Positions 1 through 28,301 of a stretch of DNA of 64,000 bases are shown piece after piece. Positions within the stretch are counted from its first letter, which is position 1. Each line of letters starts with the position of its first letter. This DNA comes from Escherichia coli (GTDB lineage Bacteria; Pseudomonadota; Gammaproteobacteria; Enterobacterales; Enterobacteriaceae), in the NCBI RefSeq assembly GCF_017348835.2, contig NZ_CP071375.1; one strand, given 5' to 3'. The position numbers were made by a program, and so were the translations under genes. Below the pieces are notes generated by a model. The model did no database searches, had not been told where the DNA came from, and was given only the letters and a program-made list of their open reading frames with translations.

Positions 1-2150
<2,150 letters not shown>

Positions 2151-15279: not shown

Positions 15280-15399
15280 ATGCCTGGCAGTTCCCTACTC
15301 TCGCATGGGGAGACCCCACACTACCATCGGCGCTACGGCGTTTCACTTCTGAGTTCGGCATGGGGTCAGGTGGGACCACCGCGCTACTGCCGCCAGGCA
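15280..15399 (-). rRNA. rrfG: 5S ribosomal RNA
   Basis: 120-nt reverse-complement match to the E. coli 5S sequence (TGCCTGGCGGC...CTGCCAGGCAT). Confidence 0.95.
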
Positions 15400-15493
15400 A
15401 ATTCTGTCGTATTAACCCGCTTACCGCCGGTTAATCTAATCTGTATCAGGCTGAAAATCTTCTCTCAATCCGCCAAAACACCTTCGGCGTTGT

Positions 15494-18398
<2,905 letters not shown>

Positions 18399-18591
18399 TC
18401 ACAACCCGAAGATGTTTCTTGCGATCCATCATCTTGTTGCGAAAATTTGAGAGACTCACGAACAACTTTCGTTGTTCAGTGTTTCAATTTTCAGCTTGAT
18501 CCAGATTTTTAAAGAGCAAATATCTCAAACATCACCCGAAGATGAGTTTTGAGATATTAAGGCAGGTGACTTTCACTCACAAACCAGCAAG

Positions 18592-18667
18592 TGGCGTCCC
18601 CTAGGGGATTCGAACCCCTGTTACCGCCGTGAAAGGGCGGTGTCCTGGGCCTCTAGACGAAGGGGAC
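18592..18667 (-). tRNA. gltW: tRNA-Glu (anticodon UUC), 16S-23S spacer tRNA
   Basis: 76-nt reverse-complement match to GTCCCCTTCGTCTAGAGGCCCAGGACACCGCCCTTTCACGGCGGTAACAGGGGTTCGAATCCCCTAGGGGACGCCA. Confidence 0.95.
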
Positions 18668-18752
18668 GTATCAGTCTGCTTCGCAAGACGCCTTGCTTTT
18701 CACTTTCTATCAGACAATCTGTGTGAGCACTACAAAGAACGCTTCTTTAAGG

Positions 18753-20294
<1,542 letters not shown>

Positions 20295-20737: not shown

Positions 20738-23311
20738 TTACTGGACGGCGACAATCCGGTCTTCATTAACTTCCAGGCGAATCACTTTACCCGGAACCAA
20801 TTCACCAGACAGTATTTGCTGTGCCAGCGGGTTTTCGATCTGCTGCTGAATTGCACGTTTCAGAGGACGTGCACCATAGACCGGATCGTAACCGTTCTCG
20901 CTCAGCAGTTTCAGCGCCTCGTCAGAAATGTGGATTTCATAACCACGTTCTTCCAGACGTTTATACAGACGTTTCAATTGAATCTGCGCAATCGACGCAA
21001 TGTGCTGTTCACCCAGCGGATGGAAGACCACCACTTCATCGATACGGTTAATGAATTCCGGACGGAAGTTATGGCTAACCACACCGAGCACCAGCTCTTT
21101 CATGTGCGCATAATCCAGTTCACCGAAGCGTTCCTGAATCAGATCGGAACCGAGGTTAGAGGTCATAATGACAACCGTATTACGGAAGTCGACCGTTCTC
21201 CCCTGCCCGTCAGTCAGACGCCCATCATCCAGTACCTGCAACAGAATATTGAAGACATCCGGATGCGCTTTTTCCACTTCATCCAGCAGGATGACGGAAT
21301 ACGGACGACGACGCACCGCTTCGGTCAGGTAGCCACCTTCTTCATAACCGACATATCCCGGAGGCGCACCAACCAGACGAGACACCGAGTGTTTCTCCAT
21401 AAACTCGGACATATCGATACGGACCATCGCCTCGTCGCTATCAAACATAAAGTTCGCCAGCGCCTTACAAAGCTCTGTTTTCCCCACACCAGTTGGGCCG
21501 AGGAACAGGAATGAACCAATCGGGCGATTTGGATCCGCCAGCCCCGCACGGCTACGACGAATAGCGTTAGATACCGCATCAACCGCTTCGTTCTGACCAA
21601 TTACGCGATGGTGCAGTTCTTGCTCCATACGCAGCAGTTTTTCGCGCTCGCTTTCCATCATGCGAGAAACCGGAATCCCCGTCCAACGCGCCAGCACTTC
21701 AGCAATTTCAGCGTCGGTCACTTTATTACGCAACAGACGCATAGTTTTGCCTTCGAGCTGCGTTGCGGCTTCCAGTTGCTTTTCCAGTTCCGGGATTTTG
21801 CCGTATTGCAGTTCAGACATCCGCGCCAGGTCACCCACACGGCGAGCCTGTTCAATAGCGATTTTCGCCTGTTCCAGTTCCGCTTTAATGGTCTGCGTAC
21901 CAGAAAGCGATGCCTTCTCTGCTTTCCACTCTTCTTCTAACTCGGAGTACTGACGTTCTTTGTCGCTCAGTTCTTCGTTGAGCATATCCAGACGTTTTTT
22001 ACTGGCTTCATCAGACTCTTTCATTAACGCCTGTTGTTCCAGTTTGAGCTGGATGATACGGCGATCGAGTCGGTCGAGTTCTTCTGGTTTTGAGTCAATC
22101 TGCATACGAATGCTGGATGCTGCTTCATCGATCAGGTCGATGGCTTTATCCGGCAGCTGACGGTCAGCAATGTAGCGATGAGACAACGTCGCCGCTGCAA
22201 CAATTGCCGGGTCAGTAATTTGCACATGGTGGTGCAATTCGTAACGTTCTTTCAGGCCACGCAGAATCGCAATGGTATCTTCAACAGAAGGCTCGGCAAC
22301 AAACACTTTCTGGAAACGACGTTCCAGCGCAGCATCTTTTTCGATGTACTGGCGATATTCGTCAAGCGTCGTGGCACCTACGCAGTGCAATTCACCACGC
22401 GCCAGCGCCGGTTTCAGCATGTTTCCGGCGTCCATTGCGCCATCGGCTTTACCCGCGCCGACCATGGTATGTAATTCGTCGATAAACAGGATGACGTTGC
22501 CTTCCTGTTTGGCAAGGTCGTTAAGCACGCCTTTTAAACGTTCTTCAAACTCACCGCGATATTTCGCCCCAGCCACCAGCGCGCCCATATCCAGCGCCAG
22601 TACCCGGCGGCCTTTCAACCCTTCCGGCACTTCGCCGTTGATAATACGCTGCGCCAGACCTTCAACGATGGCAGTTTTACCGACGCCGGGTTCACCAATC
22701 AGTACCGGGTTATTTTTAGTACGACGTTGCAGCACCTGAATGGTACGGCGAATTTCTTCATCACGACCAATCACCGGATCGAGTTTGCCCTGTTCGGCTC
22801 GTTCGGTAAGGTCGATGGTATATTTTTTCAAAGCCTGACGTTGGTCTTCAGCACCTTGATCGTTCACGCTTTCACCTCCACGCATTTGTTCAATCGCTTG
22901 AGTAATGTTGGCGGTGGTCGCCCCTGCTGCTTTCAGGATGTCGGCCAGTGTGCCGCGAGACTCAAGTGCCGCCAGAACGAACAGTTCTGACGAGATAAAG
23001 TTATCACCACGTTTTTGCGCCAGCTTGTCGCAAAGATTAAGAACGCGCACCAGATCCTGTGATGGCTGGACATCACCACCAGTACCTTCAACCTGCGGTA
23101 AACGATTTAATGCCTGATTGATATCTGTGCGCAACTGGCCAGCATTTATGCCAGCGGATGTTAATAAAGGACTAACCGAACCCCCTTCCTGATTCAGCAG
23201 GGCGCTCATTAAATGAAGTGGTTCGATAAATTGGTTGTCGTGCCCGAGTGCAAGTGATTGGGCATCGGCAAGAGCAAGCTGGAATTTATTAGTAAGACGA
23301 TCCAGACGCAT
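20738..23311 (-). CDS. clpB: Hsp100 disaggregase chaperone ClpB
   Basis: ORF 20738..23323; start chosen at [10 protein letters not shown] (857 aa); two AAA+ modules with Walker A/B and a coiled-coil middle domain. E. coli ClpB is known to have a second internal GTG translation start producing a shorter isoform. Confidence 0.95.
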
Positions 23312-23344
23312 AACTCCTCCCATAACGGATCAAAGTTGCTACTG

Positions 23345-23382
23345 GAGATTAAATGAGGTCATCCCTCAATTATTCAAGGTTA
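23345..23382 (-). promoter_or_regulatory. Sigma-32 (heat-shock) promoter of clpB
   Basis: Minus strand reads CTTGAA - 14 nt - CCTCATTTA, fitting the sigma-32 consensus (CTTGAAA / CCCCATnT). Confidence 0.6.
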
Positions 23383-23440
23383 TTGACCAGATTAATGTGA
23401 AAAGAAAATCACGCGTACCGGATCGTCTTGATTCTTTAGG

Positions 23441-24172
23441 TTATATCAGCCAAATGAAACTTGCCATACGACCGGTGGTCTTGTCGCGACGATAAGAGAA
23501 GAAAGTCTCATTTTCCGTATATGTACAACGGTCGCCGCCGAAAATTTGTTCAACACCAACGCTCGCCAGACGCTGCCGGGCAAGCTGATAAATGTCCGCC
23601 AGATACTTATCACCATGCTGAATGAAAGCTGTACTCGCTTCGGCGTCTACTGCCATAAACGCCTCGCGAACCTCCGCCCCCACTTCAAACGCGCGTGGAC
23701 CAATTGCCGGCCCTAACCAGGCGAGAATATTTTCTGGATTATCAGCAAAACAGGAAACTGTCTCTTCCAGCACGCCTGCGCACAGTCCACGCCAGCCAGC
23801 ATGAGCGGCGGCGACTTCCGTTCCCGCTCGATTGCAAAACAGCACAGGGAGGCAGTCGGCAGTCATCACTGCGCAAACCGTGCCGGGCGTATTGCTATAA
23901 GAGGCATCTGCTCGTTTTGAGGCATAAGGTTCGCCAGTAAGCTTAAGCACATCTTTGCCGTGTACCTGCTCAAGCCAGACCGGTTTAGAAGGCAAATTGC
24001 CCGCAGCAAAAAGTCGCTTGCGATTCTCCTCAACGTGATCCGGGTTATCGCCACAATGGGCACCGAGGTTGAGCGAGTCATACGGGGGCAAGCTCACGCC
24101 GCCGATACGAGTAGAGCTACAGGCCGCAACACCTTTTGGCAGCGGCCACTGCGGAACAATCAGCTTACTCAT
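23441..24172 (-). CDS. yfiH: Purine nucleoside phosphorylase / polyphenol-oxidase-like protein YfiH
   Basis: 243-aa ORF recognised as YfiH (PgeF); overlaps the rluD stop by 4 bp. Confidence 0.9.
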   Translation of the reverse strand: MSKLIVPQWPLPKGVAACSSTRIGGVSLPPYDSLNLGAHCGDNPDHVEENRKRLFAAGNLPSKPVWLEQVHGKDVLKLTGEPYASKRADASYSNTPGTVCAVMTADCLPVLFCNRAGTEVAAAHAGWRGLCAGVLEETVSCFADNPENILAWLGPAIGPRAFEVGAEVREAFMAVDAEASTAFIQHGDKYLADIYQLARQRLASVGVEQIFGGDRCTYTENETFFSYRRDKTTGRMASFIWLI

Positions 24173-25149: not shown

Positions 25150-25283
25150 ATATACTGCTTCTTCGTTTATCGTTGGGGTTTTACGGCTTTGCCGTTTAAT
25201 ATAGTGTGCTATTGTAGCTGGTCTTAACCGGGAGCAGGAACAGAGAATCTCCCGTATTACATTTTGAGGAAAGTCAAAACGTC

Positions 25284-26021
25284 ATGACGCGCATGAAATA
25301 TCTGGTGGCAGCCGCCACACTAAGCCTGTTTTTGGCGGGTTGCTCGGGGTCAAAGGAAGAAGTACCTGATAATCCGCCAAATGAAATTTACGCGACTGCA
25401 CAACAAAAGCTGCAGGACGGTAACTGGAGACAGGCAATAACGCAACTGGAAGCGTTAGATAATCGCTATCCGTTTGGTCCGTATTCGCAGCAGGTGCAGC
25501 TGGATCTCATCTACGCCTACTATAAAAACGCCGATTTGCCGTTAGCGCAGGCTGCCATCGATCGTTTTATTCGCCTAAACCCGACCCATCCGAATATCGA
25601 TTATGTCATGTACATGCGTGGCCTGACCAATATGGCGCTGGATGACAGTGCGCTGCAAGGGTTCTTTGGCGTTGACCGTAGCGATCGCGATCCTCAACAT
25701 GCACGAGCTGCGTTTAGTGACTTTTCCAAACTGGTGCGCGGCTATCCAAACAGTCAGTACACCACCGATGCCACCAAACGTCTGGTATTCCTGAAAGATC
25801 GTCTGGCGAAATATGAATACTCCGTGGCCGAGTACTATACAGAACGTGGCGCATGGGTTGCCGTCGTTAACCGCGTAGAAGGCATGTTGCGCGACTACCC
25901 GGATACCCAGGCTACGCGTGATGCGCTGCCGCTGATGGAAAATGCATACCGTCAGATGCAGATGAATGCGCAAGCTGAAAAAGTAGCGAAAATCATCGCC
26001 GCAAACAGCAGCAATACATAA
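25284..26021 (+). CDS. bamD: Outer-membrane protein assembly factor BamD (TPR lipoprotein)
   Basis: 245-aa ORF with lipoprotein signal (LFLAGCSGS) and TPR-like repeats. Confidence 0.93.
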
Positions 26022-26058: not shown

Positions 26059-27484
26059 TAATGCCAGTCAGTTAAGCAACTGACTGGCTCTTTTTCGGGG
26101 CTGTGGGGTATTTCCAGGGCCTCTCCTTTACCACTCTCGGGAAGGCCCTTTCCCTTCTTGTCGGTAATTTCACAAGTTGTCCCATACTTGCAAGATCGCG
26201 CATCAGCTCCGGTATACGTCCCGGTGAAGCGCCCTGCAATGTCATCAGCATTCTCATCACCATTCCGCATGATTCTGAGAAGCTCAGTTGATTTGGCCAG
26301 TAACCTTTCAGATGTTCCGCCATTTTAATCATCTGATATCTCACCAGATTATAAGCCAGTAAGACACCCCACAGCTCTTGCTCCACAAGCTCAGGCTTTT
26401 TACTTCTCAGCGTCAGCCTGCTCAGTTGCATCGTCTGTTTTATCTCCCTGTATCCCAGTTCGATTTCCCAGCGATGACTGTACAGATCCGCCATTTCTCC
26501 TCCGGGGAAGCGCATGGCGTCCGTCATCGACGTCAGCAGATGGCAGACTTTTCCTTTGCGCGTCACGGTCAGCAGGCGGGCTGTCACCTCATTTCCCAGT
26601 CCCGGCCACTTTTTTCGTGCCTGCGGGCTGGTTTTCAGCTTCACCAGATGATCGCCTTTACCCAGTTTTCTGATCTCTTCATATTGCGCTCCCTTTCTGA
26701 GAGGGATCATCCAGTGGCGGTGTTCTCCCGCCAGGCTCCAGGCATTTAACAATCCCAGTGAGTAATAACCTTTATCCATTAACGTCAGAGTGTTATCGCC
26801 GGTTTGTTCTATAAGTTGCTCAGCAAGCTCATTTTCGCTGTTCTTCATCGTGCCGAAGGCTGCAGCCGTCAGCAGATGGCTGGTCAGTTCCATCTGGCAG
26901 ACCATTTTGACCTGCGGGTAGAGCGCCGGGGTCCCGGCATGTGTCTGGCGAGGGAAGGCTGCATCGTTCTCTGGTGTATCCGGTGTGCGCCAGAACACAC
27001 CATCGATGGCCAGCAGGGTCAGGCCGCACCAGTGCGGATGCGGCGTGGCGTTATGCCAGAGCTGCGCTGTTTTCGTGAACACGCGGCGGACAGCCTCACT
27101 TCCCAGGCGCTGGCGGGCCTGAATAACAGCACTGGGGGCAACGAAGGTGCGATTGCCCGGCAGCATGATGTCCAGGCGATTCACAATCTGGTGAAGAGGT
27201 TCTTTACGCTCAAGCGCCATGCCAACAATACACCAGACCATCATTTCGAGGGGAAGACGGCGCTTGCGTAGCGTTACAGTACCTGATTCGGCAAGGCAAC
27301 GAGAGATGAGTTCGGGGTCGAGGTAATCTCCCAGAGAAGTCAGTGGGTTACGCAGAGAATCGTAACGGGATACCAGATCAAGAGCCTGTCCAATGTGCAT
27401 AAAAAAATCCGGAAACGAGTGAGCGTTTCCGGATTCTTACACAGCCACTGGATCGGTCAACTGATCCTTAACTGATCGGCATTA
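26059..27484 (-). mobile_element. IS4 insertion sequence, complete (1426 bp)
   Basis: Terminal inverted repeats taatgccagtcagttaag... (left) and ...cttaactgatcggcatta (right), a single 442-aa DDE transposase ORF, and flanking direct repeats. Confidence 0.9.
26072..27400 (-). CDS. insG: IS4 transposase
   Basis: 442-aa ORF ([16 protein letters not shown]...) recognised as the IS4-family DDE transposase. Confidence 0.9.
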
Positions 27485-27677: not shown

Positions 27678-28073
<396 letters not shown>

Positions 28074-28120: not shown

Positions 28121-28176
28121 GTTGACAGCGTGAAAACAGTACGGGTACTGTACTAAAGTCACTTAAGGAAACAAAC

Positions 28177-28224
28177 ATGAAACACATACCGTTTTTCTTC
28201 GCATTCTTTTTTACCTTCCCCTGA
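28177..28224 (+). CDS. pheL: pheA operon leader peptide (Phe-rich, 15 aa)
   Basis: ATG at 28177 encoding [15 protein letters not shown] then stop; seven Phe codons. Confidence 0.85.
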
Positions 28225-28270
28225 ATGGGAGGCGTTTCGTCGTGTGAAACAGAATGCGAAGACGAACAAT

Positions 28271-28301
28271 AAGGCCTCCCAAATCGGGGGGCCTTTTTTA
28301 T
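28271..28301 (+). terminator. pheA attenuator terminator
   Basis: Hairpin aggcctcccaaatcggggggcct followed by tttttta, between pheL and pheA. Confidence 0.7.

Follow-up and report, generated by a model that had tools for sequence, protein, structure and literature searches.

What the short spacer between yfiH and clpB of Escherichia coli encodes, and how the heat-shock-controlled clpB gene might be shielded from constitutive transcription coming from upstream, are the questions raised by this locus. It was analyzed within a window, i.e., the whole stretch of 64,000 nucleotides under study, which is E. coli DNA: of 5426 complete E. coli genomes, 5425 have a match to a 601-bp query around the spacer, in many cases with 100% identity. 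The features framing the spacer are as follows.

20738..23311, minus strand: clpB, with its ATG at 23311, beginning MRLDRLT... and encoding 857 aa
23309..23321, minus strand: clpB translation initiation region, with the Shine-Dalgarno sequence (SD) GGGAGGAG at 23321..23314 and the AUG at 23311..23309
23441..24172, minus strand: yfiH, ending in the stop codon TAA (23443..23441)

The spacer itself (23312..23440) is 129 bp long, exactly as given in the initial annotation of this DNA, and has the same length in K-12. ORF callers give an 861-aa ClpB because an in-frame ATG at 23323 (23321..23323, minus strand), four codons 5' of the clpB start, lies inside the SD. ClpB80 is annotated to start at an internal GTG, which corresponds to position 22867 on the minus strand.

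Several further features were observed in the window. Between bamD (25284..26021) and raiA (27732..28073), a 442-aa ORF on the minus strand (26072..27400) with the Pfam domains Nterm_IS4 and DDE_Tnp_1 is the mark of an IS4-type insertion not present at this place in K-12, raiA and pheL being shifted by about 1.44 kb; raiA, the source gene of RaiZ, lies about 4.5 kb from the spacer-encoded RNA described below. A complete rRNA operon (5S, 23S, 16S; 15282..20294, minus strand) carries a tRNA-Glu(UUC) in its spacer (18592..18667), and an Rfam match to StyR-44 (18406..18514) is located just upstream of the 23S gene. A tmRNA with the tag peptide ANDENYALAA (46061..46423, plus strand), the pheA leader/attenuator (Phe_leader; 28176..28301, plus strand), and a tRNA with the anticodon CAT (54310..54385, minus strand) were also detected.

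The yfiH–clpB spacer encodes the known enterobacterial sRNA RyfD (Rfam RF02768; E. coli b4609), whose reported presence near clpB had been mentioned tentatively in the initial annotation.

23291..23433, minus strand: RyfD small RNA, 143 nt (RyfD nt n is window position 23434-n)

The Rfam covariance model RF02768 (Ysr155_RyfD) matches 23430..23292 on the minus strand over its full length (model positions 1-140 of 140) with 125.3 bits (E = 6e-27), compared with a curated gathering score of 42 bits. The K-12 ncRNA ryfD (b4609; 2734153..2734295, minus strand), from whose annotation the 5' end at 23433 is taken, projects onto 23291..23433 with an offset of 2,710,862, and the window differs from K-12 at 0 of 143 positions in ryfD and at 51 of 2501 in the flanking 2.5 kb. 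RyfD lies between yfiH and clpB on the clpB strand and overlaps the clpB start, its first nucleotide being 8 nt past the yfiH stop codon and its 3' end 21 nt inside clpB, at codon 7. The interval 23312-23440 proposed initially thus gives the limits of the spacer correctly and those of the sRNA incorrectly, as RyfD reaches 23291 in clpB. An Rfam scan of 23100..23700 (E <= 1) returned nothing but RyfD and one chance intron match, and no riboswitch family. The RyfD found here is an already catalogued sRNA, and its identity adds nothing new; its annotation in E. coli K-12 reportedly dates from a 2005 study of Kawano and colleagues, and it also features in a number of ProQ and interactome studies.

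The distribution of this element was examined in the clpB loci of 80 Enterobacteriaceae species, which were anchored on the ClpB N-domain and hence collected independently of RyfD, together with 11 more distant loci. The element was present in all 80 species and scored above the Rfam threshold in seven of the 11 distant loci, and the synteny yfiH/RyfD/clpB was kept in the 80 Enterobacteriaceae loci and in several of the more distant ones. It was not found in Edwardsiella, Plesiomonas, and one non-enterobacterial locus, and a further locus (L091) gave a sub-threshold score of 34 bits. In Yersinia pestis, Ysr155/RyfD was detected by northern blot and deep RACE between y0913 and clpB, in the order y0913 > RyfD > clpB according to the Yersinia paper, and was expressed constitutively, at a level independent of temperature and hfq. 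Three of the compared loci deserve separate mention. In locus L084 (GCA_024989695.1; 1120..2804), frameshifts split yfiH and clpB into short ORFs around a RyfD region of 91 bits, which could reflect a degraded genome or an error-rich assembly. In a Symbiopectobacterium MAG (locus L087; 1383..1520), a RyfD match of 63.5 bits covers the promoter, the SD, and the clpB start only; the locus lacks yfiH and the 5' part of the element and has a tRNA and a UDG-like gene upstream. In locus L090, a preQ1 riboswitch match of 49.7 bits (1172..1217, minus strand) lies upstream of PTPS and radical-SAM (queD/queE-like) genes and adjoins a non-enterobacterial clpB.

A discrete transcript of about 140 nt is supported not only by the northern blot and deep RACE data from Yersinia but also by published transcript ends from K-12, whose RyfD sequence is identical.

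23290..23291, minus strand: 3' end of RyfD and of the rluD-yfiH primary transcripts, 3 nt past the helix that closes RyfD

The dominant 3' end in Term-seq data (K-12 2734153, minus strand; labelled 'ryfD primary / clpB internal'; Adams et al. 2021) corresponds to window position 23291, exactly the annotated end of RyfD, and is represented by 2.65e7 reads in one and 7.4e7 in the other of the two conditions displayed, with 8e2 to 9.6e5 reads for neighbouring entries. SMRT-Cappable-seq, which reads full-length 5'-triphosphate transcripts (Yan et al. 2018), placed a TTS at 2734152 for transcripts from the rluD TSS at 2736065 and defined from this TSS an operon of rluD, yfiH, and ryfD (b2594, b2593, b4609), without clpB. 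The rluD-yfiH TSS corresponds to window position 25203 (minus strand), 3' of a TACAAT -10 box and in a back-to-back arrangement with the promoter region of bamD. Of the 125 reads that started at the rluD TSS in rich medium, 32 ended at 2734152 and 41 within 50 bp, and two passed the site; in M9, there were 74 read starts, with 10 ends at the site, three within 50 bp, and 19 reads passing. In M9, 19 of 32 rluD-initiated reads extended at least 50 nt beyond the site, with a median extension of 145 nt. RyfD is therefore co-transcribed with rluD-yfiH and has its 3' end in common with these transcripts, as expected of a 3'UTR-derived sRNA.

The way in which this 3' end arises was also considered. 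It lacks a U-tract after the helix (..CGUCUUACU/AAUAAA; 3' flank ACUAAUAAAUUCC), and no terminator was found at 23291 in a terminator scan; a canonical intrinsic terminator, i.e., a G+C-rich hairpin followed by a U-tract, was rejected for this position as the U-tract is missing. The RyfD 3' end could be produced by termination of a non-canonical kind; or longer RNAs could end heterogeneously, perhaps with the help of Rho, and then be shortened by 3' trimming as far as the helix. Trimming is compatible with the read-through seen in M9 (about 145 nt) and with the bicyclomycin Rho score at 2734153, which is small but significant (1.28, p = 3e-8; authors' threshold 2; Adams et al. 2021). An RNase III product is unlikely, as the mapped ends lie outside the helix and are not staggered within it.

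In addition to rluD-yfiH transcription, a promoter of its own may contribute to RyfD synthesis.

23440..23467, minus strand: putative sigma-70 promoter of RyfD in the last yfiH codons, recognized by sequence inspection

The candidate consists of a -35 box aTGgCA (23467..23462), a 16-bp spacer, and an extended -10 box TGaTATAAc (23448..23440), which ends 7 nt before the annotated RyfD 5' end at 23433. The yfiH codons under these boxes are nearly frozen among the 80 species (CGT 94%, GCA 94%, AGT 100%, CTG 96%, the rare ATA 100%, and TAA 100%), whereas codons of the spacer vary (TTC 45 / TTT 34; ATT 57 / ATC 20) and those further upstream show ordinary diversity. Such conservation of the yfiH 3' end is promoter-like, and the element is regarded here as a candidate. 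A sigma-70 promoter scan, which excludes a -10 box ending in C as that of the candidate does, found no promoter. No entry supporting a primary 5' end at 23433 was present in the TSS sets examined, and the Cappable-seq supplements were empty near these coordinates. In SMRT-Cappable-seq, at least one read spans ryfD and clpB only, implying initiation between the yfiH start and RyfD +1.

The promoter and start site of the heat-shock clpB mRNA are located within RyfD.

23351..23378, minus strand: clpB sigma-32 promoter inside RyfD, with the -35 element CTTGAA at 23378..23373, N14, and the -10 element CCTCATTT at 23358..23351
23342..23343, minus strand: clpB heat-shock transcription start, A 23343 (RyfD nt 91) and a minor G 23342

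CTTGAA-N14-CCTCATTT is the sole match in the 64-kb window to CTTGAA-N13-15-CCNCATNT, a loose sigma-32 consensus pattern for which 0.03 matches were expected by chance, and the promoter is invariant across 62 distinct sequences. The clpB (b2592) TSS mapped by SMRT-Cappable-seq at K-12 2734205 (Yan et al. 2018) corresponds to 23343, 8 nt after the -10 element, and agrees with the adjacent A/G starts observed by primer extension (cited in PMC6941012). The single match and the published TSS downstream of it bear out the near-consensus sigma-32 promoter for clpB that had been noticed initially. The RyfD 5' end is 90 nt upstream of this start and the sigma-32 promoter sequence is contained in RyfD, so the sRNA initially supposed to lie in this spacer exists and its suggested 5' UTR derivation does not hold. 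The heat-shock clpB mRNA has a leader of just 32 nt, and the 5' arm of the RyfD structure is absent from it.

RyfD is predicted to be highly structured: its 143 nt fold at -52 kcal/mol (z = -5.6), and none of 200 shuffled sequences was as stable. In both the MFE and centroid structures, its two ends are joined by a long closing helix.

23406..23429, minus strand: RyfD nt 5-28 (5' arm of the closing helix)
23294..23316, minus strand: RyfD nt 118-140 (3' arm of the closing helix), comprising the SD 3' edge, the AUG of clpB, and its codons 2-6

The helix has about 23 bp. One segment joins nt 5-16 to nt 129-140 (clpB codons 3-6), and the next, set off by a bulge of one nucleotide, joins nt 18-28 to nt 118-128 (SD 3' edge, AUG, and codon 2). 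A perfect inverted repeat of 10 nt (23420-23429 / 23294-23303), with the two copies 116 nt apart, makes up the outer part of the helix, whose base lies close to both RyfD ends, the mapped 3' end following it by 3 nt and the annotated 5' end preceding it by 4 nt. The heat-shock clpB start (RyfD nt 91) falls in the loop closed by this helix. For the interior of the loop, RNAalifold and the Rfam model disagree on the hairpins, whose sequences are invariant and hence beyond the resolution of covariation. A terminator-like hairpin, UGAGG-GAUGA-CCUCA followed by UUUAAU (23354..23368, minus strand), was also observed in RyfD in the sigma-32 spacer/-10 region and competes with the hairpins of the Rfam model.

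The consequence of this helix for the accessibility of the clpB ribosome-binding site (RBS) would depend on where the transcript starts. For E. coli, the predicted cost of opening the RBS is 29.5 kcal/mol in upstream-initiated RNA versus 10-13.5 kcal/mol in the sigma-32 mRNA, and the probability that the AUG is unpaired is 0.02 versus about 0.5-0.6. Even at 45 C, the predicted opening cost for upstream-initiated RNA is still 26.4 kcal/mol. Over the RBS window (-12..+12) of the 77 distinct sequences that have the 5' arm, the upstream-initiated isoform has a mean opening cost of 28.7 kcal/mol (minimum 20.1), which exceeds all 15 shuffles of the 5' segment in 77 of 77 cases, whereas the means are 14.4 kcal/mol for the sigma-32 isoform and 13.9 kcal/mol for shuffled 5' segments, and the five loci lacking the arm give 9-17 kcal/mol. 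In divergent genera, the 5' arm has other sequences (ACGCGUGAUUUUC, AAGGCAAACUUAUUUUUC, GUGCGGAUAACUCC, and ACGACGCAUGG) and its pairing in the MFE structures always includes codons 2-6 and the AUG, and in most cases the SD. On thermodynamic grounds, transcripts initiated upstream are thus predicted to be translationally silenced.

The opening-cost comparison is structure-agnostic and is more informative here than covariation. Among 62 distinct sequences, pairing of the outer 12 bp is kept in practically every cell, with one G-A exception; one outer pair occurs as A-U (58), G-U (2), and G-C (2), another alternates between A-U and G-U, and a further compensatory pair is seen in locus L089 (GGUUCGG with CUGGACC). 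When the E. coli MFE structure was imposed on the 62 Enterobacteriaceae sequences, 92.0% of positions were paired compared with 92.0% after shuffling, a non-significant result from a control that has no power because the 3' arm is almost invariant; a slid-partner control gave 36-47% and is biased, as the structure was derived from one of the sequences.

The near-invariance of the 3' arm extends to synonymous sites of the coding sequence. Codons 2-6 of clpB (R L D R L) are frozen among the 80 species (CGT 80, CTG 80, GAT 78, CGT 80, and CTT 80), and the first codon to vary is codon 7 (ACT 40 / ACC 39), precisely at the end of the helix. Codons 5-6 have drifted (CGC TTA, CGT CTA, and CGT TTA) in three of the five loci without the 5' arm, namely those with an R-L-D-R-L start. 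The other two are L090, which is divergent throughout, and L087, whose frozen codons 2-6 in spite of the missing arm suggest a recent loss.

We propose, with about equal chances of being right or wrong, that the RyfD closing helix acts as a promoter-straddling insulator of clpB. RyfD would be made by sigma-70 transcription from upstream, either by read-through from rluD-yfiH or from its own extended -10 promoter, and the closing helix would set and protect its 3' end. In the same upstream-initiated transcripts, the helix would sequester the clpB SD, AUG, and codons 2-6, so that these RNAs would either end at codon 7, giving abundant ProQ-bound RyfD, or, on read-through, be translationally locked. 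Sigma-32 transcripts would be born inside the loop without the 5' arm and would be unable to form the helix; they could therefore elongate and support efficient ClpB translation. Three observations are in keeping with this proposal: RyfD is constitutive and clpB heat-inducible, codons 2-6 are frozen, and both RNA ends coincide with the base of the helix.

Once released, RyfD may also act in trans with ProQ, for example on the 5' end of the lpp mRNA.

23338..23352, minus strand: lpp-complementary site (RyfD nt 82-96, UUAAUCUCCAGUAGC), pairing with the first 16 nt of the lpp mRNA

A strong contact of RyfD with the lpp 5'UTR was described in a 2025 TRIC-seq preprint. In a windowed search, RyfD nt 82-96 and lpp nt 1-16 were predicted to form a duplex of 15 bp with one bulge at -21.6 kcal/mol, and one of 40 shuffles was as good; a full-length duplex prediction gave large loops and was no better than shuffles. 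The predicted local duplex agrees with the published contact. As the site straddles the sigma-32 -10 element and +1, it is whole only in upstream-initiated RNA. The same stretch of RNA might thus combine three roles: terminating transcripts or stabilising their 3' end, locking translation, and acting in trans as a ProQ sRNA.

The foremost alternative, rather unlikely in our opinion, is that RyfD is a stable by-product, a structured 3' remnant of rluD-yfiH (or abortive clpB-directed) transcription without any function in trans. This alternative bears on function alone and does not conflict with the identity of RyfD. The primary rluD-yfiH transcripts do end at the same nucleotide as RyfD; however, a remnant would hardly account for the conservation of the 5' arm and of the promoter-like block across genera. 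The number of genetic interactions of RyfD in a double-deletion screen was one of the lowest, and its known phenotypes are mild (less biofilm formation and swarming) and come solely from overexpression, yet it is very abundant and strongly ProQ-enriched, being one of the most abundant sRNAs in ProQ co-IP in Salmonella and an 'abundant ProQ-associated sRNA' in E. coli. A predicted duplex between RaiZ and RyfD was no better than shuffles (7/20), which is in line with a by-product, whereas the specific and strong lpp contact and the 15-bp complementarity point to a partner in trans. RyfD also elutes in high-molecular-weight fractions in E. coli, which speaks against an inert remnant; the same RNA has no obvious ORF and no ribosome-profiling support.

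A second alternative, that the element is a cis-acting clpB leader (an attenuator, riboswitch, or RNA thermometer) tuning ClpB from the clpB mRNA, is very unlikely. The element overlaps the clpB 5' end in sense and pairs the SD and AUG of a heat-shock gene, and the Yersinia authors raised riboswitch or attenuation mechanisms for sense-overlapping sRNAs; but the main clpB TSS at 23343 is inside the element and yields an mRNA with neither the 5' arm nor more than the 32-nt leader, by which this alternative is largely refuted. An RNA thermometer was rejected on the same absence of the arm from the sigma-32 mRNA and on the opening cost of about 26 kcal/mol (26.4) at 45 C, and neither the lack of any Rfam riboswitch match in the region nor the temperature-independent RyfD level in Yersinia favours a sensing leader. 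Finally, an antisense RNA, an option raised initially, or a small protein-coding transcript, for which a 7-codon ORF is readable within RyfD (AUG ACC UCA UUU AAU CUC CAG UAG), is a most improbable source of the signal, since both the Rfam match and the K-12 annotation place RyfD on the clpB strand, all Term-seq rows naming ryfD or clpB refer to the same minus-strand 3' end with none classed as antisense, and no promoter-like site was found in a plus-strand scan.

The proposed insulation by the closing helix suggests how heat-shock-controlled clpB is shielded from constitutive upstream transcription and offers a reason why RyfD is constitutive and clpB is not. No discussion of a control of clpB was found in the searched papers mentioning both RyfD and clpB (Kawano 2005 being outside this search), and the function of RyfD is still called unknown; the added value is modest and mechanistic.

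Compared with known systems, the element shows no difference from RyfD/Ysr155 (RF02768; b4609), with which it shares sequence, position, strand, full-length model, and mapped 3' end. It resembles RaiZ-type ProQ sRNAs from mRNA 3' ends in that it has a 3' end in common with rluD-yfiH, starts just past the stop codon, and combines a high degree of structure with abundance, ProQ binding, and independence of Hfq. Unlike them, its body overlaps the promoter, the 5' UTR, and the first 7 codons of the next gene, and it probably has its own promoter and lacks a U-rich intrinsic terminator. As in RNA thermometers (the rpoH coding-region element, ROSE, and ibpA), the SD and AUG of a heat-shock gene are paired with upstream sequence; however, the sequestering arm is absent from the heat-induced clpB mRNA, the helix is far too stable for melting at 42-45 C (about 26-27 kcal/mol), and control of clpB would act via the choice of start site rather than temperature-dependent melting. 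Intrinsic terminators likewise have a stable helix directly 5' of a sharp 3' end, and the A-rich 5' flank of RyfD pairs with the 3' end of its stem (AAGACG/CGUCUU) as in such terminators, whereas the RyfD helix has no U-tract, closes a multibranch loop of about 90 nt that contains a promoter, and ends inside a coding sequence.
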